A stretch of 62,879 nt of DNA, the filler included, from Stramenopiles sp. TOSAG23-2 (lineage: Eukaryota): NCBI GenBank assembly GCA_900128395.1. It is 19 parts of 19 records of this genome, joined end to end, with 100 filler letters (N's around TTAATTAATTAA, not from the genome) between each part and the next. Parts side by side here need not be neighbours in the genome. Positions count along the whole stretch, not along the records: positions 3,452 to 6,801 come from LT651246.1; 18 more parts are not named here. One strand, written 5' to 3'. Within the stretch, counting starts at the first letter, position 1; each line of letters starts with the position of its first letter. Positions 3,452 to 58,077 of the stretch are shown here, in pieces. The translations under genes were made by a program, and so were the position numbers. The notes beneath the pieces were generated by a model. That model was given only the letters and a program-made list of their open reading frames with translations, did not search any database and had not been told where the DNA came from.

Positions 3452-3512
3452 AATTGACTATTTTCACTATCTTCAATATCATCAATTGAAGGAGGCAGTT
3501 GAAGAACACCCA
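3452..3512 (-). CDS. 5' start of an unknown gene (MGVLQLPPSIDDIEDSENSQ...), cut by linker
   Basis: ATG at 3512 after an AT-rich leader; frame open to contig end. Confidence 0.4.
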
Positions 3513-3980
3513 TATATATATATTTATGAGTAAATAAAATATCTTTTTAAATTTGAGTAAGAGAATTTTTTATATTTTTTATAAAAAAATATACATGTAC
3601 GCGTCGTATTTTTTTATGACTATATATAAATTATTATATATATTAAAAATATTAATACCTCTCTAAATATAAACTTCTAAATAGATTTTTTACCAACATA
3701 TTTTATACCCTGGTATCATACTCTAAATTTAAAGGCCCGTGTACGTATTATTTTTTTTCGGCGGTAAATTTAAAATTGTTTTGATTTTTTTTAAATATCA
3801 TATTACACTCTATCAGTAGATGATACGACAACAAATTACACACAAACTATTGAATATGCAATTACGATATTTAATATATATGTACACATGAACGTTTTTG
3901 TATTCACATAATGTTAGATAAATTTTCAGTATTATTATGTACTATGATATGTAAAGGCGTATGATATATATATAAATATG

Positions 3981-4206
3981 TATAAATATAATTTTGTACG
4001 GGTGCGTAGCGCTCGCTGGCCATTGACAAGGCCATGGAGCGACTCTAAAAGACAACCGGTTTATCTTGCATCCGTACAAACCCTGTAAATCAGTATAAAT
4101 ATAATTTTGTACGGGTGCGTAGCGCTCGCTGGCCATTGACAAGGCCATGGAGCGACTCTAAAAGACAACCGGTTTATCTTGCATCCGTACAAACCCTGTA
4201 AATCAG
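3981..4206. repeat. Exact 113-bp tandem duplication (3981-4093 / 4094-4206), probably an assembly artefact
   Basis: Two identical copies; similar ~100-bp duplications occur at 5761 and 19445. Confidence 0.9.
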
Positions 4207-4248
4207 AGGATAAATCCGTCATTACAAGGCTCTAGACGTTGCTGAATT
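4100..4248 (-). ncRNA. Unclassified structured RNA (K-turn-like hairpin followed by a three-way junction)
   Basis: GC-rich island in AT-rich DNA. Stems: GCCUUGUAA/UUACAGGGU enclosing AUGACGG...CUGA; UUUGUACGGAUGC/GCACCCGUACAAA; AAGAUAA/UUGUCUU; CGCUC-UGGCC/GGCCA-GAGCG. Confidence 0.55.
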
Positions 4249-4352
4249 TATTTATTAAAAGATATATATATATGTACTGATATATTTGTATCTGCCCAGA
4301 TATATATATCCAATTGTAAACATTATTACATGCAACAACAACAAAAATAAAA

Positions 4353-4428
4353 GCCATCAAGAAAAAAGTTCCGGATCATTCTTTTACGTCACACGAAAGA
4401 TGGTTGAAAAATATTTTCATCATATGGC
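4353..4428 (-). ncRNA. Box C/D snoRNA guiding 28S 2'-O-methylation at the yeast Am807-equivalent site (snR39/snR59-, U32/U51-type function)
   Basis: Terminal stem GCCA/UGGC, box C AUGAUGA, D' GUGA, D UUGA. The guide ACCAUCUUUCG is complementary to conserved 28S CGAAAGAUGGU, and the +5 rule points to the second A after the G. Confidence 0.85.
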
Positions 4429-4515
4429 ATTTTTTGTATAGCAGTATATATATGTATATATATATGTTTTAAAAAGCAGAATCCAGCAGTTATATATATT
4501 TTTGTATCTAGAAAA

Positions 4516-4694
4516 TTGTCCTAAGTTCTCATAATCCTTTAATGTGGCATGGGAGCCTCGTGGGTAATGTTCAAAGTCTTTCTCGCCAATCGATTCATCA
4601 ATAATATAACTAAATATAATATATCAAAAACTACAAAGGCTTACAGTGTTTTGTCAACCCGCTCCTTAACTATAAAATCTTCATCACTGGACAA
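4516..4694 (-). ncRNA. Long box C/D snoRNA, candidate snR4-like 18S helix-34 acetylation guide
   Basis: Terminal stem UUGUCC/GGACAA; C GUGAUGA (4687-4681), D' UUGA (4627-4624), C' UUGAUGA (4601-4595), D AUGA (4532-4529). CCAUGCCACAUU can pair with 18S GGUGGUGGUGCAUGG with bulges. Confidence 0.65.
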
Positions 4695-5006
4695 AATTTA
4701 TATATATAGACTATACCAGAATTTCATTATGTTGTATATATATATATATATGTAAAATGATAGTACTTACAACATTAGTATCACTTCATATTATTCAATT
4801 TTTTATTATCCTTCTACTTATTCATTAGATCATGTAATCGGTAACTCGAATATAATTATATATATTGCTAATTATAATATTAAAATGTTAGATGTAAAAA
4901 TTATTACTGAAAATAGGGGGTATCATATATATGAATGTATATGTTTGTGTGTTTGTATATATCTATATATATATGTATTTTATATTTATCAAAGATAAAT
5001 ATAAAA

Positions 5007-5197
5007 AAATGTAACTAGCCCATTAGTAGGTAAAGAAAGGTGTTTCCTTAATCTACCTGTAAAGTGACAGACAGTCTAGAGTTGTCTGGCTCCTGTATAA
5101 CTTTATTCAAGATATACATTTATTCTTGGCAACATTAGTTAAAAGTCTACCCATAATAATTCCATTACAGAGGGGATGCTTTAGGCAAAGTCGCCGC
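5007..5197 (-). ncRNA. Box H/ACA snoRNA candidate with three hairpins
   Basis: 5' hairpin GGCGAC/GUUGCC followed by H box AGAAUA; middle hairpin UGUAUA/UAUACA; second ANANNA (AGACAA); 3' hairpin CUAG/CUAG with upper stem AGGUAGA/UUUACCU 15 nt from ACA; ACA followed by a U-run. Confidence 0.7.
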
Positions 5198-5270
5198 GTA
5201 TGTGTGATATATTTCAACTCAAAATATTTCACATCGGTATATATATATATATATTTATATTAAACAAGAT

Positions 5271-5386
5271 GAGCTCAGACATCCAAGGAAGTATTCGTCC
5301 TACACAAATTTACGGTATGGCTAACCTTATCACTTTAAGGGATGTACTGCGAATGGTTGGGAAACCGGTTTTTTCTATCATCGCTC
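5271..5386 (-). ncRNA. U14: U14 (SNORD14/snR128) box C/D snoRNA
   Basis: Terminal stem GAGC/GCUC, C-like GAUGAUA, domain A CAUUCGCAGU and domain B CUUCCUUGGAUGUCUGA. These are the diagnostic U14 18S-antisense elements. Confidence 0.95.
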
Positions 5387-5523
5387 TTGTTTAATAAATG
5401 CATATATATATATATATATATATAGGTGTTTGTATGTGTGTTTATATGATGATGTATGTAGTTTTGTGTAATATATATCGTATTTTTTCTTTTGCAATTT
5501 GTGTTACTTTAAAAAAAAAAAAA

Positions 5524-5641
5524 AGAGTCAGAAAAGGAGTGCGAGTCCTGTATTTTTAGAACTGATTTCTTCATATGGCATCTAGTGGGTAGAAATACCT
5601 AAGAAGCAAAACTGGCATGTTCATGACGTTCATCATTCTCT
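5524..5641 (-). ncRNA. Orphan box C/D snoRNA (118 nt)
   Basis: AGAG/CUCU terminal stem, perfect C box AUGAUGA (5636-5630), D box CUGA (5531-5528), internal AUGAAGA C'-like motif. Confidence 0.8.
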
Positions 5642-5760
5642 AATTTGTTTTTTTTTTTTAGCAATATACAATATATATGTATGTCTGTCTGTATGTAAAA
5701 AGATGTATATATATATATATATATAGAATCTGTATGAATGTAAAACTTACTTTTAAATTT

Positions 5761-5970
5761 CTTGTAATTAACACTATAATAGTAGTAAAATATTGTTTTT
5801 ATTCAAACTATATTTGTTCGTGGTAATTGATTTCTTATCATTGTTGCTTCTAACATTAGATAATGCTTGTAATTAACACTATAATAGTAGTAAAATATTG
5901 TTTTTATTCAAACTATATTTGTTCGTGGTAATTGATTTCTTATCATTGTTGCTTCTAACATTAGATAATG
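5761..5970. repeat. Exact 105-bp tandem duplication, probably an assembly artefact
   Basis: 5761-5865 is identical to 5866-5970. Confidence 0.85.
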
Positions 5971-6142
5971 TTATCAAACAATATGAATAGCTGTGTCAAC
6001 AGATGTAGGAGATATATATCGATCTCTTTGTTTCTGCCATACATGTGTGTGTGTGTGTCACTCTGTGTATATCCAATTTGGATGGGATTTAGATTTGGTT
6101 GGTTCTCAAAGAAAGGACGTCTTACAGACTACAGTATGAAAC

Positions 6143-6770
6143 CGCATGGCATCAATGGCATGGCAATGGCATTACGATGGCATTGTCATGGCATCTCAAT
6201 GGCATTGTAATGGCATTTTACAGGTACTTTTTATCCTAAACTCCAACGACAGTTCCCCCATTGTATTTCCTGTTAAATCATTTCCCCCTATATTTGGTGC
6301 ACATATCACCTTAATTCTAAAAATGGTAAATATATAATGGCATTTTAATGGCATTTTCCGATTCTAATTTTCCCTTAGACTACTCCTATATATGCAAACA
6401 GAGACCATTCCTAAGGAGAACAGTAAAACATGTATGTATAAACTATAATGTACTTCAATATCTACTGTTACATCAGCAATTGACCTATATAATCATCTTT
6501 CAATAGAAAATCACCAAAAGATTGAATATAAAAAGTTTTTTCAAAAATATATTCAAAAACTCAAGTTTGGTGTAATTGCAATGCCATTGCAATGCCATTG
6601 CAATGCCAATAGAAAGCCATATAAAAAAACAAAATTGGTGCCACCATGATGCCATCACACTGCCAAAACAATGCCAATACAATGCCATTTTAATGCCAAT
6701 ATGGTATAGCAAAGATCAATTTTTGAAATGCCATCATGCTGCCAAGCTGATGCCATTGCAATGCCATATT
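6143..6770. mobile_element. Putative foldback/MITE-like element with inverted arrays of an 11-bp unit (AATGGCATTGC-like)
   Basis: ATGGCA units at ~11-bp spacing at 6143-6220 and 6335-6356; reverse-complement TGCCAT arrays at 6576-6612, 6648-6700 and 6727-6768. Confidence 0.5.
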
Positions 6771-6901
6771 GTAAATATACCTTAATAATACCTTAAACAA
6801 TNNNNNNNNNNNNNNNNNNNNNNNNNNNNNNNNNNNNNNNNNNNNTTAATTAATTAANNNNNNNNNNNNNNNNNNNNNNNNNNNNNNNNNNNNNNNNNNN
6901 N

Positions 6902-48361: not shown

Positions 48362-49807
48362 TTAATCTTTGGATGATTTCTTCTTCTTCTTCTTTTTCTT
48401 TTTTTTATCTTTCTTTTCTTTCTTTTTTTTCTTTGCTTTCGGTTCATCGTCTGAATCATCATTATCTACATCCATAGCACTACTAGATCTTTTTAAACTT
48501 TTACCAACTTCATTCATACAATCTATGTTTTTCCTTGGTGCATCACCTGTGTCGTAAAACTTTAAACGTTCTTCCACTTGTGATTTCATCATTTCCCCAT
48601 ATTCTTTCGTAGCAACTTCAGAAAATGCATCAATTCTTGAAGCAATTGAACATTTATTAGCTAAATATCTTGAAATTCTACCTTTATTCTTTGCACCTGC
48701 ACGACCAATAAAACTGGAATGAAAGATCAAACCATATTTAGGAGTATTGCCACGGGTTTTCAATGCACGGAACAATGCTTTTTCTGCCCCTAAAATTTGA
48801 ACAGTAGATGCAGGAGCTTTTGCTAAATTTGTTAAACTTCCAGCATGTGATATTAAACGTGCGCCAACTACTTCCCCAATTAAAGCTTTTAAATTTGGTG
48901 CAACACGATCCATACGATCATTTAAATATTCATACAATTGATGTCTATATTTCGTCAACGAGATTACACGATCCGCAAAACTTTTGACGTTGAACATATC
49001 GACAACTGAAATGTCCATCCCCATCGATGTTTTCAATGCATTTGCCACTTGATCTGCAAGGCCATCATCATCTTCATCATTGTCCATTAAAATATCTTTT
49101 AATTCATTTAATTTAGCTTCATCAAATGAACTGCGCATTTGGATAAGCGATGCACAACGGCAGAATAAAAAATTATCTTTCACAATTTTATTCATTTCTG
49201 GGAAATGCCATGAATACCATTCCCGGCAACGCATGGAGAACGTATTAATGTCTTTGTCCAATTGATCCAACAACGAGATTGCTTGTATGATCATATTGTC
49301 ATTACGATTTACATTAAATTTCACTTTGCAACGGGAATAACTATGACCTAAACCAAGTTGTGCACGTTCTTGATTACCACCATCTAACTCTTTTACAAAA
49401 CGATGAAAATGGTTCCTTACACCTCTTAAAAGCTCTTTTGTAATCTCTTCGCATTTACATGGAAATCCTAAGCCTTCGTTAATGGAATTGCCTAATTTTG
49501 CATCGGATACACCAACCCAAAACTTAGCTTTTTTACCTTCTTTCACTTTTGGTAAATTTAGTTCCAAAAAGTCTTTTAATGTATCGTTAACAATACCTTC
49601 CGAGATATCATTAATGTTACTTAGAGCATCTTGTGCATCTTTGAATGGAACGAAACTAACGTATTTCACAAATTTACTGAATAGTTTTAAATCATTGATA
49701 GCCTCTTCCACTTCTGGTACCTTCGCACCAATTTCTTCTGCTTCAATTACTTCAAATAATGAATATCCAGCAGCAGCTTCATATAATAAATAAGCACCTT
49801 TTGGCAT
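48362..49807 (-). CDS. NOP56: Nucleolar protein 56 (box C/D snoRNP core)
   Basis: [54 protein letters not shown] and a KKE/D tail. Confidence 0.97.
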
Positions 49808-50395
49808 GATATTTTATATAATTATATTTATTTTATTTTATTATTATTGCGTAGATTAGCGTTGGTTAATATATATATATATATATGTATATATATGTAT
49901 GTATATTCTTCAACTTCTTCAACTTTAAATGAAAAAATATAATTTGTTACTTTCTAGTATAAATTCTGTCTGATTCTCTGTGTATGTATATCTTGTACCT
50001 TCCAACAGACAGGACAGGACAGTATAGTAAGTAGATGTATATACAGTAAATCTGGATATATTACATGTATTATACATATACATATAATTTATTAATATTA
50101 TTTATTTAATACATGGCACCATTGGTGTTGTGTTCTGCATCTTCCCTTTTCGTCCTAATAAGAGTGTCGTGCTGTCGACCATCCAATCTTTGGAACATTG
50201 GTTTTAACATTACACAGTATTGAAAAAGAGGCAAATCCCACCAAATACTGGAATATGATCTATCGATAGGGCTCTAGCTATATATAGTCGTCTATAGTGC
50301 TATCTATAATAGACTACCACACACCATGGTGGTAGATCTATAGTATTTATTTTTATGGTCGATTCCTCGTATAAGAAATTAATTAATTTGTGACA

Positions 50396-55695: not shown

Positions 55696-58077
55696 TTATA
55701 TATTTCGTTGGTTGTTATTTTGGGTTATATGTGTAGCTTGAACAATCGGTACCGGCTGGGCGCCTCCGGGATGTTGCATTATTTGTGGTTGTACCATCAT
55801 TCCTTGTTGTTGCATCATTCCTTGTTGTGCCTGTGGTTGCATGCTAAAGCTACCGCGGTTCATATTAAAGCTGCCGCGTTGCATATTGGGATGATTTTGT
55901 GGTACCATCTGAACATTAGTGGCAGCTTGTACACCAATTGGTTTGTTTCTATCATGTACATGTCTCCCTTTCGATCGTTGACGAAACACCATAACACCAA
56001 CCACACAACAACAGCAAAATAAAATTGGAAGGATTATTGCTAATATCAACCCGCCTGAATTCCCTTTACAATGATCCATATACACTTGCTCAATAGTGGC
56101 ACCTGTTGGAATATATGGTGCTTCACTATTAATGGGTGTAATTTGACAATACTTTTCTGAAGCCTTTGGAGAAATAACTTTTCCTGAAGTATCACCTTGT
56201 TGAGTAAAATCGTATTTAACACATTGGCTAGATCGTTTTTGTAACCTAACAGCTAATACTGAATCATCTAAACTTGCACCAAAATCAGCAGCTAATACAT
56301 CAATTCCAACAACGCCGTGAAACACACGTTTGTTGGTTTTTGCATCATTCGCATATACAGGCACTGCAACAGTTGTCATTTTACCCTGCCCACTTGAATC
56401 CATATAAAATTCTGACCACCTAGGTGTCGATGAGGCATTGCCAAGAGGAATTTTATCTGAAAAATATTCAAAATATCGTATCATAGCATGTTTCAATGCC
56501 GCTGGATCTCCATCCTCGACCTTTGCAAACCATCCATCATTTTCGCATGCCAATTGGGCAGGAATAGTCTCATCGGCGCCATTTCCTAATGCATATGTAA
56601 ATATGTGTGGAGATGGATTGCCTAATGCAGTTTTTTGATCATCCATCCAATCCTTCCACTGATCCCATTCATTATCATTCATTTTACCATCTGTTAAGAA
56701 AGATATAATACGTTCACAACCCGCTGAGTTTTGCGCGCCTCCTGCGTCAGAATTCTGTGATTTTCTAAATATCTCAAATGCTTTCTGTATCCCACATTGA
56801 CCACATGTACTACCTTGTGCTTTAATTTCCTGAATATACTCTTTCAATTTGTTTTTATTTTCATCGGTACCTCTTACCACTGTTGATTAATTAAATTATG
56901 TATTTATGTATGTATGTGTGTGTGTGTGGGTGTTTATGTCTATGTTAGAAAATTATAAGTCAATTGACACATATGAGTGTTTGTATGTGTGTGTAGGTAC
57001 CAAATATAAGTATAAAACTTACATGTTCCACTGTTGGATCGAGCACCTGTGCTGTAAACTACAACCTGAATAAAATCAGAAAATGTAGCAGTGTTTAATT
57101 GTGCTATAGCAGCCTCTTTCATAATTTCTAGACGTTCTTTTTCAACTACTTCCTCTTCTCCGTTCTCGTTTATTTCCTTCACTTCCTCTCTCTCTCTCTA
57201 NNNNNNNNNNNNNNNNNNNNNNNNNNNNNNNNNNNNNNNNNNNNNNNNNNNNNNNNNNNNNNNNNNNNNNNNNNNNNNNNNNNNNNNNNNNNNNNNNNNN
57301 NNNNNNNNNNNNNNNNNNNNNNNNNNNNNNNGGCATACCATGGTCTATATCTAGGATCATATGTATCACACCAACACATCGTCTTAATGGATGCAGGATA
57401 TTGAGCAAACAGACCGGTCTCTTGCCCACCAAAATACTGCCAAGAAGTAGTGGCTGCTAAGTCACCGTAAATTGTATCCCCTTTCGCACTTCTATCAAAA
57501 GCCTTTCCAGCCATTGATGCTGCGCATACTTCTGCGCGAACTTTGTCGTTCTGTGGTGTATCTGGTTGGATTTTATATCCCGTATAATCGCCTGTACGTG
57601 CCCCTTTAAATTTTTCATTCTTCTCTAATTTTTGTGGTGTATTCTTACCATCTGTTGGGCGCGTATCCTCGTAAGTAACTTCGTACGTGTTACCTTCTTC
57701 TTCACTGTGTACATACTTTCCTCCTTGTTNNNNNNNNNNNNNNNNNNNNNNNNNNNNNNNNNNNNNNNNNNNNNNNNNNNNNNNNNNNNNNNNNNNNNNN
57801 NNNNNNNNNCTTCGTCACTCTTTACATACTTTCCTCCTTGTTCTTCGTCTGGCATACACATATCGGGAAATTTATAGTCACTGATTCCATCGCAAATAGA
57901 AGCACTTAAACCCTGTGCATCGATTGTTTGGAATGCTTTAATTATTTCGTTAGCAGCATCCATAGCCATCAATTCCCTGGTAGACATTGCATCTCCACTT
58001 GTATCGCAGTACGAAAATGGCACAATGTTTGATAAAATAAGTATCGTAGTGGTTACAAAATGAATAATACTAACCAT
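55696..58077 (-). CDS. Alpha2-delta/CACHD1-like VWA-Cache membrane protein; intron 56880-57022; two internal N gaps
   Basis: Signal peptide, WQYFG..TG.F..YPA, YDPRYRPWY, FLTDG, IFTYALG, WSEFYMDSSGQG, GVVGIDV, TM plus CCCC. The GTAAGT...ACAG intron restores SGTLVRGT. Confidence 0.88.

Follow-up and report, generated by a model that had tools for sequence, protein, structure and literature searches.

A conserved snoRNA gene cluster in an uncultured stramenopile includes a predicted guide for the wobble cytidine of elongator tRNA-Met

What does a stretch of DNA without a protein-coding frame encode when it carries six compact islands, all oriented alike, and do these belong to one gene or to several? 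The question is raised by a single contig of 3350 nucleotides (nt), C5502, from the eukaryotic genome assembly of Stramenopiles sp. TOSAG23-2 (GCA_900128395.1; 32.8 Mb in 9146 contigs). It occupies positions 3452-6801 of the window, that is, the whole 62,879-nt stretch that was analysed, in which unrelated contigs of ~3.3 kb are merely joined by N linkers, so that genes past a linker are not neighbours of this locus. A sequence-only reading had proposed a polycistronic cluster of small nucleolar RNA (snoRNA) genes in the introns of a non-coding host. We regard the existence of a six-member snoRNA gene cluster as practically certain. As the likely overall explanation we propose a spliced non-coding host that releases six small nucleolar ribonucleoproteins (snoRNPs), the fourth RNA (RNA4) guiding the methylation of C34 in elongator tRNA-Met. 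The members and the predicted parts of the host are listed below in window coordinates, where "five lineages" means this genome plus four related lineages, which are kin and not independent draws.

5745..5750, minus strand: predicted intron 1, 5' donor GTAAGT; distance to the RNA1 guide 91-167 nt in all five lineages
5750-4868, minus strand: predicted intron 1, 883 nt, holding RNA1, RNA2 and RNA3
5524..5641, minus strand: RNA1, box C/D RNA of snR61/U38 type; box C 5636-5630, D' guide 5617-5604, D' box CUUA, terminal box D CUGA
5271..5386, minus strand: RNA2, U14 (SNORD14/snR128) with domains B and A and boxes C and D, assigned by Rfam RF00016 and 18S pairing
5007..5197, minus strand: RNA3, snR83-type H/ACA RNA with an additional hairpin in the middle; H box 5126-5121, ACA 5012-5010
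4868..4891, minus strand: branch motif CTAAC (4891-4887) and acceptor TAG (4870-4868) of predicted intron 1, the motif present in five of five lineages
4771..4867, minus strand: predicted non-coding middle exon, 97 nt, with 4, 4 and 5 stops in the three frames
4765..4770, minus strand: 5' donor GTAAGT of predicted intron 2; GTAAGT, GTAAGA or GTGAGT before RNA4 in all five lineages
4516..4694, minus strand: RNA4, long box C/D RNA; box C 4687-4681, guide 4537-4527, box D CUUA 4525-4522, terminal stem of 6 base pairs (bp)
4353..4428, minus strand: RNA5, box C/D RNA of snR39/U51 type, box D UUGA; D' guide 4404-4394, D guide 4372-4361
4105..4242, minus strand: RNA6, two-hairpin H/ACA RNA of snR11 type; H box 4179-4174, ACA 4110-4108
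3847..3917, minus strand: predicted intron 2, branch motif CTAAC (3917-3913) and, with less certainty, acceptor TAG (3849-3847)

The six co-oriented minus-strand islands and the lack of a protein-coding frame had been described before, close to these positions, and both stand; the polycistronic arrangement is borne out by its conserved order in related metagenome contigs. These relatives were found by scanning metagenome contigs with two U14 antisense motifs, which gave 37 loci with 25 distinct U14 cores. Seven of the loci (four of the distinct cores) carry the same cluster: L019/L024, L051 and L033 have the complete set of six RNAs in unchanged order, L020 has RNA1 to RNA5, and L027, a shorter twin of L020, has fewer. 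The other 30 loci (21 cores) are without any of three guides, and many of those contigs are short. Identity of the six RNAs amounts to 88-100% against L019 and 78-95% against L051; that of the six spacers is 46-58% and 21-45%, respectively, with shuffled L019 controls at 41-54%. L033 and L020 share only 54-58% identity with the other lineages across four aligned RNA segments, and this deep divergence exposes the guides that have remained invariant. The (TA)n spacers seen at the outset are present here as runs of 10-22 nt in all four intra-intron spacers, but none occurs in L051, L033 or L020; such runs mark this genome rather than the cluster. MicroRNA matches to them among weak Rfam results were dropped.

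The member with the most telling guide is RNA4. Its box C is canonical (RUGAUGA type), and its longest invariant block, unchanged in five of five lineages, is an 11-nt guide that stands one base before box D, the terminal stem following. All 11 positions of this guide form Watson-Crick pairs with the elongator tRNA-Met of this genome (L103) once the introns of the latter have been removed in silico, and the duplex reaches -16.4 kcal/mol; the best among 23 other targets gives -10.3 kcal/mol and initiator tRNA-Met only -6.6 kcal/mol. Counting from box D, the fifth base lies opposite the anticodon C, i.e., the wobble C34. Among the 7584 nt tested, a perfect match to an 11-mer would arise by chance with a probability of ~0.002, and the 11-mer has no good partner in the genome's own small-subunit (SSU) and large-subunit (LSU) ribosomal RNA (rRNA), spacers, U2 or U6; own SSU, LSU, U2 and U6 served as targets throughout. 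Moreover, the guide is the complement of the target block of SNORD97/SCARNA97 as printed by Vitali and Kiss, 2019 (PMC6601510; this and the other papers cited by PMC number are represented here by excerpts). Judged from these pairings, it is very probable that RNA4 binds elongator tRNA-Met, and fairly likely that it directs methylation of C34.

A search of the genome for the guide complement gave 12 matches, one of them the guide itself, with none in a tRNA and none then showing CUGA. A second perfect copy of the guide, together with the same five bases, lies at L088 (C815:4851-4861) in apparent coding sequence and without a terminal stem; it is probably due to chance. Outside the guide, Rfam yielded no SNORD97-type match to RNA4 at E values (E) up to 10, whether Rfam holds such a model not having been checked, and a weak ceN111 match at the 5' end was dropped, as it is not conserved in the relatives. 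The homologues in L033 (1078-1422) and L020 (1262-1582) measure 320-345 nt and contain a large internal hairpin, RNA4 itself being ~180 nt long; this hairpin recalls the long internal region of SCARNA97, but is not pyrimidine-only.

The predicted target is encoded in an unusual way:

C806 ~9120-8840, minus strand: elongator tRNA-Met (L103), four exons and three introns of 75, 62 and 70 nt

Intact-gene pattern searches of the genome missed this gene, and among 21 matches in an Rfam tRNA search (63 of 1468 candidates scored) the only tRNA-Met was the initiator. A pattern allowing for a splice donor found it, with two matches, both in tRNA genes, and one in the control. The three introns have the form GTAAGT...YTAAC...AG, and their removal leaves a full tRNA-Met(CAU) in ARAGORN. 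The anticodon sits in a 16-nt micro-exon, 10 nt of which are covered by the RNA4 pairing, and one of the introns interrupts the target site of the guide; on the unspliced precursor, 10 of the 11 pairs are possible (-15.4 vs. -16.8 kcal/mol). Four further tRNA genes are split in a similar manner:

C50:71-345: tRNA Ile-UAU (L102), three introns
C6323:185-328: tRNA Gly-UCC (L077), one intron
C2785:26-236: tRNA Thr-UGU (L079), two introns
C636:20100-19960, minus strand: tRNA Thr-CGU (L080), one intron

Including tRNA-Met, the predicted introns of these five genes are 62-75 nt long and of spliceosomal type (GTAAGT/GTATGT/GTACGT, YTAAC, AG), and their in-silico removal restores a full cloverleaf in five of five cases; for the first donor of Ile-UAU one was chosen after six candidates had been tried, two of them with success. 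This split type accounts for three of the 21 Rfam matches. Since many tRNA isotypes were not found in the genome, more such genes are possible; introns of this kind hide tRNA genes from tRNA scanners. Our literature search, which left most subscription journals and preprint supplements outside its scope, found no account of spliceosomal introns in tRNA genes, including in the excerpts of PMC13149111.

Binding need not mean methylation. RNA4 could associate with elongator tRNA-Met or its precursor as a chaperone or as a fading guide, in which case any 2'-O-methylated C34 would come from a protein-only enzyme of the Trm7/FTSJ1 type. The terminal box D lends this some weight, as it reads CUUA in this genome and in L019, CUAA in L051 and AUGA in L033/L020, with CUGA in none of the five lineages: CUUA and CUAA, found in three of the five, are without the kink-turn G, a loss that may reduce methylation or prevent it altogether. 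The pairing with the unspliced precursor and its coverage of the micro-exon speak for the same reading, and yeast snR190 has a guide for which methylation is not reported in the excerpts of PMC5464676. We nevertheless consider it doubtful. The one-base spacing to box D that puts C34 at +5 is kept in five of five lineages, and AUGA is an accepted variant of box D (PMC3596301). RNA1, too, has CUUA at its D' box, in front of a guide for a conserved methylation site, where relatives have CUGA, so that CUUA may be tolerated in this lineage. Given the non-canonical box D, methylation of C34 by RNA4 is thus rated only as likely.

The remaining five RNAs are predicted to be directed at rRNA. Their targets obey the D+5 and pocket-distance rules and coincide with sites modified in yeast, and the offsets between own and yeast numbering are steady, at +10 for three SSU sites and +83, +81 and +73 for the LSU. 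We take the human counterparts of snR61, snR39/59, snR83 and snR11 to be U38, U51, ACA4 and ACA3. The list of modified yeast sites is that of the table in PMC8307265.

RNA1, at first called an orphan, forms a 14-bp duplex, two G-U pairs included, with LSU 1210-1223 and places A1214 at D'+5; its predicted target is LSU A1214, the site of 2'-O-methyladenosine (Am) 1133 in yeast. Its relatives match Rfam weakly, snR61 in L033 (29.6 bits, E 0.4) and Z223 in L020 (28.9 bits, E 0.045), both with CUGA as D' box. The 3' part of RNA1 is a small hairpin that varies between lineages and is not a guide, which is why a match to SSU 1175-1187 was dropped. For RNA2, the earlier assignment of a U14 starting at 5386 is confirmed by the Rfam score (48.4 bits, E 2.2e-8, cut-off 64) and by two perfect SSU pairings free of G-U, 5356-5346 with SSU 86-96 (11 bp) and 5291-5279 with SSU 416-428 (13 bp).

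RNA3, recognised before as an H/ACA RNA at 5197, proves to be one, and is predicted to target SSU U1425 with its 5' pocket and SSU U1300 with its 3' pocket, the sites of yeast pseudouridines (Psi) 1415 and 1290. For the 3' pocket, U1300 comes top of 1750 U positions (10 + 5 bp, score 31 vs. 13 for the runner-up); for the 5' pocket, U1425 is top in five of five lineages with the right strand beginning 13-14 nt before the H box. Both sites lie 125 nt apart, as do those of yeast snR83, which guides 1290 and 1415 (PMC8307265), and share the +10 offset with the helix-34 cytidine. The fold has a z score of -1.2. Identification as snR30 or snR10 from general features was dropped once the H/ACA boxes and pockets fitted.

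RNA5 was rightly taken for an Am807-type guide at 4428: its D' guide, invariant in five of five lineages, forms an 11-bp duplex with LSU 887-897 and sets A890 at +5, the Am807 site of yeast. Weak Rfam matches fall in clan CL00054 (snoMe28S-Am982, E 1.3; SNORD51 in L020, E 1.4). The second guide of RNA5, 4372-4361, pairs over 12 bp with two G-U to LSU 1567-1578, is less conserved in L051, L033 and L020, and possibly targets LSU A1571. The site-table passages of PMC8307265 hold no modification at this position in yeast, and a lineage-specific methylation is possible.

RNA6 had been noted at 4248 as a structured RNA of no stated class. Its fold is strong indeed (z -3.74, none of 200 shuffles equally stable) and is now read as an H/ACA RNA of snR11 type, but the RNA ends at ~4105, and the remainder is a tandem copy (4085-3973). 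A two-hairpin consensus from four sequences, in which five of 34 pairs changed on both sides, supersedes an earlier three-way fold; the H box is imperfect in L033. The 3' pocket ranks LSU U2489 top of 1750 U positions in the three lineages tested (8 + 3 bp), and the predicted target is thus the snR11 site, yeast Psi2416 by offset. For the 5' pocket no clear target was seen in the genome's own rRNA; yeast Psi2129 was rejected, as own U2032 is off the numbering and PMC8307265 assigns Psi2129 to snR5. General features had also brought up U4, signal recognition particle RNA, RNase MRP, telomerase RNA and snR30 for RNA6, all of which were dropped when H/ACA boxes and pockets fitted. Overall, the predicted targets lie in the SSU for U14 and RNA3, in the LSU for RNA1, RNA5 and RNA6, and in a tRNA for RNA4, so the suggested theme of 40S maturation is not upheld.

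The copy behind RNA6 has a counterpart at the other end of the cluster, and both bear on how the assembly should be read:

3973..4085, minus strand: 113-nt tandem copy of the 3' part of RNA6, 98% identical repeat; contig C3364 starts inside
5761..5970: 105-nt perfect tandem duplication upstream of donor 1; contig C4377 starts inside

C3364 and C4377 are second copies of the cluster flanks, 84-89% identical, each starting inside one of the duplications, and both duplications are probably assembly artefacts; the assembly would then hold a collapsed core between two haplotypes or copies. Instead, 4085-3973 could be a real partial duplicate of RNA6 and the flanks could belong to two paralogous clusters and not to alleles, since 84-89% identity is a high divergence for alleles and the upstream flanks part after ~250 nt. 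This we think improbable: both duplications stand exactly where other contigs begin, as might be expected at the edges of a collapsed core, the tandem copy is absent from L019, L051 and L033, relatives have a single RNA6, and the cluster core was found once in the genome. A hairpin-ACA formerly suspected at 3968-3878 is not sustained, as the flank copy L003 (89% identical) has indels and no such ACA and the relatives were unmatched by eye. Upstream of the cluster, window 6155-6770 contains two inverted blocks of an 11-nt repeat (ATGGCATT-like) 360-520 nt apart. They are absent from the second flank copy (L004), where a different tandem repeat stands, and are possibly a foldback element in one haplotype. 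At the opposite end of the contig, window 3511-3595 is an AT-rich element of 60-80 nt with ~35 genome matches at 81-94% identity, often at contig ends, and represents a small dispersed repeat.

Is the cluster carried by one spliced host? The GTAAGT donors pointed out earlier at 5750 and 4770 are present, and are the only two on the minus strand of C5502; the GTAAGTTTTA context at 5750 is the same as that of an intron at 57022, which lies on another contig. GTRAGW occurs in the four intra-intron spacers of none of the five lineages. Between RNA3 and donor 2, the branch motif of intron 1 reads CTAAC in four lineages and CTGAC in L033, and the first YAG follows 19-43 nt later. An alternative CTAAT/TAG at 4828-4814 with a 43-nt exon gave way to this, as the relatives keep the CTAAC at 4891-4887 instead, which sets the acceptor at 4870-4868 and the exon at 97 nt; its counterparts in relatives are 55-120 nt long and poorly alignable. 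The branch motif of intron 2 lies 97-245 nt past the RNA6 pocket in the four lineages that reach that far. By chance, 200 nt would contain a donor at a rate of 0.12-0.17 and a branch motif at 0.25-0.37. With splice motifs at the same places in five of five lineages, an intron-containing non-coding host, as the sequence-only reading had it, is probable.

The cluster is flanked in L019 by a diverging gene for a class II tRNA synthetase (OB-fold, WHEP domains), aspartyl type by our reading, on one side and by a converging HhH-GPD glycosylase gene on the other. As both flanking protein genes are on the opposite strand, the host is not protein-coding there, and the gene context points to a stand-alone non-coding gene. 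The synthetase gene stands head to head with the cluster, ~1.2 kb upstream (L019 4613-6079). C4377 extends to the start of an aspartyl-tRNA synthetase-like gene and ends with its first nine residues, the same as in L019, and via this contig (L004 1169-1197) the head-to-head arrangement probably exists in this genome as well; a shared bidirectional promoter is possible.

The same RNAs could also be made from an unspliced polycistron of the plant or yeast type with its own promoter, or from several small units, the splice motifs being chance or relics. The distant acceptor of intron 2 would fit such a reading, as would the independent U14-containing clusters of Ostreococcus (PMC7671301). Set against this are donor and branch motifs that persist at the same four places amid spacers at shuffle level, clear branch-pyrimidine-TAG acceptors in L033 and L020, and the absence of donors from the four other spacers; we hold an unspliced origin to be quite improbable.

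The spliced-host account would run as follows. The minus strand would hold a non-coding gene of its own, transcribed as one unit, from which two introns of ~0.9 kb would be spliced out, intron 1 with snR61/U38, U14 and snR83, intron 2 with the tRNA-Met guide, snR39/U51 and snR11. Debranching, cuts between the RNAs and exonucleolytic trimming would then give six snoRNPs. Five of these would act on pre-rRNA, U14 in 18S processing, one double pseudouridine guide on 18S, and two ribose-methylation guides plus one pseudouridine guide on the large subunit. RNA4 would pair with the anticodon loop of elongator tRNA-Met, where fibrillarin could 2'-O-methylate the wobble C34, as with human SNORD97/SCARNA97.

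A number of points weigh against this account. We infer transcription as one unit, splicing, the releasing nuclease and every modification, and expression of the host as well as mature RNA ends are predicted from sequence. The splice-motif rule was set after the sequences had been seen, in lineages that are kin, and the first YAG of intron 2 follows its branch motif by 66 nt (27-76 nt in relatives), a wider gap than other introns of the genome show. No conserved structure was found in the spacers (one of 19 has a z score below -2) and stems flanking U14 exceed chance in only three of five lineages, which leaves the releasing cut unexplained; one RNase III-domain gene, within a frame of 2168 codons, was found in the genome. 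The tRNA target exists only once three predicted introns are removed in silico. The target numbering presumes the yeast sequence contexts behind it. If the right strand of the RNA3 5' pocket is taken one base longer, LSU U1072 ranks first, and the strict rule did not rank U1300 for the 3' pocket in L033/L020. Finally, in the Rfam check proposed with the sequence-only reading, no family reaches the gathering score across the whole window, and RNA3, the RNA4 guide and RNA6 are unmatched at E up to 10; U14 appears below the cut-off (E 2.2e-8), together with weak snR61/Z223, snoMe28S-Am982 and SNORD51 matches in the cluster or its relatives.

As to the bearer of the cluster, its Nop56 has oomycetes as best named matches (~65%). 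In a tree of 32 hand-picked proteins out of 120 listed, from which named alveolates and rhizarians are absent, it falls on the stramenopile side (100/99), grouped with environmental sequences in a clade separate from oomycetes and Ectocarpus. The source organism, as placed by this protein, is an uncultured, deep-branching stramenopile. The gene for Nop56, a box C/D core protein, is found at window 48365-49813 on an unrelated contig, and its closeness to the cluster is an accident of concatenation. Twenty-four sequencing runs from 17 studies (20 recorded as RNA, three guessed to be RNA) contain 11-33% of sampled words and were not used for expression, splicing or habitat.

Arrangements of this kind have precedents. 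SNHG and GAS5 hosts usually have one snoRNA per intron; the likeness to them that had been proposed extends to the predicted non-coding host with introns and fails for the number, as there are three per predicted intron here. Fungal spliced non-coding hosts (snR78-72, snR57-55-61 and snR41-70-51; PMC3596301) share with UHG/GAS5-type hosts and with ours the non-coding nature, tiny and poorly conserved frameless exons, and splice signals that are kept, and snR61 is a member there, too. Unlike them, our cluster has three RNAs per predicted intron, mixes C/D with H/ACA RNAs, combines U14 with a tRNA guide and comprises another gene set. Plant and algal polycistrons (PMC7671301, PMC10557570) likewise hold several snoRNAs per precursor that need cleavage, with U14 in cluster 1 of Ostreococcus, whereas ours is from a stramenopile and no conserved RNase III-type stems were found in its spacers. 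Fungi, plants and green algae are known to have spliced hosts and polycistrons, so that by itself the arrangement is ordinary. The single RNAs resemble yeast snR61, snR39/59, snR83, snR11 and U14 in the rRNA sites predicted for them, one RNA combining both snR83 sites (PMC8307265), but differ in sequences below Rfam cut-offs, the extra middle hairpin of RNA3 and the possible second guide of RNA5 (LSU A1571).

RNA4 does share with yeast snR4 its length, an atypical box C/D build and the lack of an rRNA methylation target (PMC5464676, PMC9226516), and had been labelled snR4-like. The reading as an acetylation guide for the cytidine in helix 34 (own SSU C1290), for which the window copy pairs at seven of eight positions (five Watson-Crick) with the GS2 target and the helix-34 CCG is present, is largely refuted and hardly credible: snR4 requires the guide elements GS1 before box C, which pairs 6-10 nt past the target C, and GS2 in the loop after C', which pairs 9-16 nt ahead of that C (Sharma, 2017; PMC5464676), whereas RNA4 is without both, the bases before box C forming the terminal stem with 2-4 of five GS1 pairs at best and no conservation, the best GS2-like stretch shifting its position with 1-3 Watson-Crick pairs in four relatives, Rfam giving no snR4 match, and the longest invariant element fitting C34 of tRNA-Met instead.

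The tRNA-Met guide is the closer comparison, RNAs with this task having been described in animals, plants and archaea. Like human SNORD97/SCARNA97, RNA4 is a long box C/D RNA, intron-encoded (here by prediction), with one invariant box-D guide whose fifth base lies on C34. It differs in its non-canonical box D, in sharing an intron with two rRNA guides, in its non-coding host, in the absence of a visible pyrimidine-rich Cajal-body signal, and in a target gene with spliceosomal-type introns. RNA4 is likely of SNORD97 type by descent, with homology seen only in the guide. The homologue list of SNORD97/SCARNA97 in the excerpts of PMC6601510 covers vertebrates, insects, a tunicate and flowering plants, with no protist, and in those of the Ostreococcus paper SNORD97 appears only as a human example (PMC7671301). 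Within the literature in scope, most subscription journals and preprint supplements lying outside it, we found no report of a SNORD97-type tRNA-Met guide in a protist.

What seems new here, as read from the genome, is a predicted tRNA-Met guide in a third supergroup together with its intron-split target. With a guide for C34 of tRNA-Met in a stramenopile, three eukaryotic supergroups would be represented, animals and plants standing for the other two, and this would favour an origin no later than the last eukaryotic common ancestor. Since Rfam misses RNA4, the 11-nt guide with its box pattern offers a direct route to survey protists. We speculate, tentatively, that guided wobble methylation of tRNA-Met is ancestral in eukaryotes and reaches the stramenopiles, where it would be tied to the spliceosome on both sides, by an intron-borne guide and by a four-exon tRNA with a junction in the target site; the snoRNP may couple splicing of the tRNA to methylation of C34 or help to define the 16-nt micro-exon. 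If the tRNA introns are spliced as predicted, a polymerase III tRNA would depend on the spliceosome outside fungi, and a single substrate would allow a test of whether splicing or guided methylation comes first.

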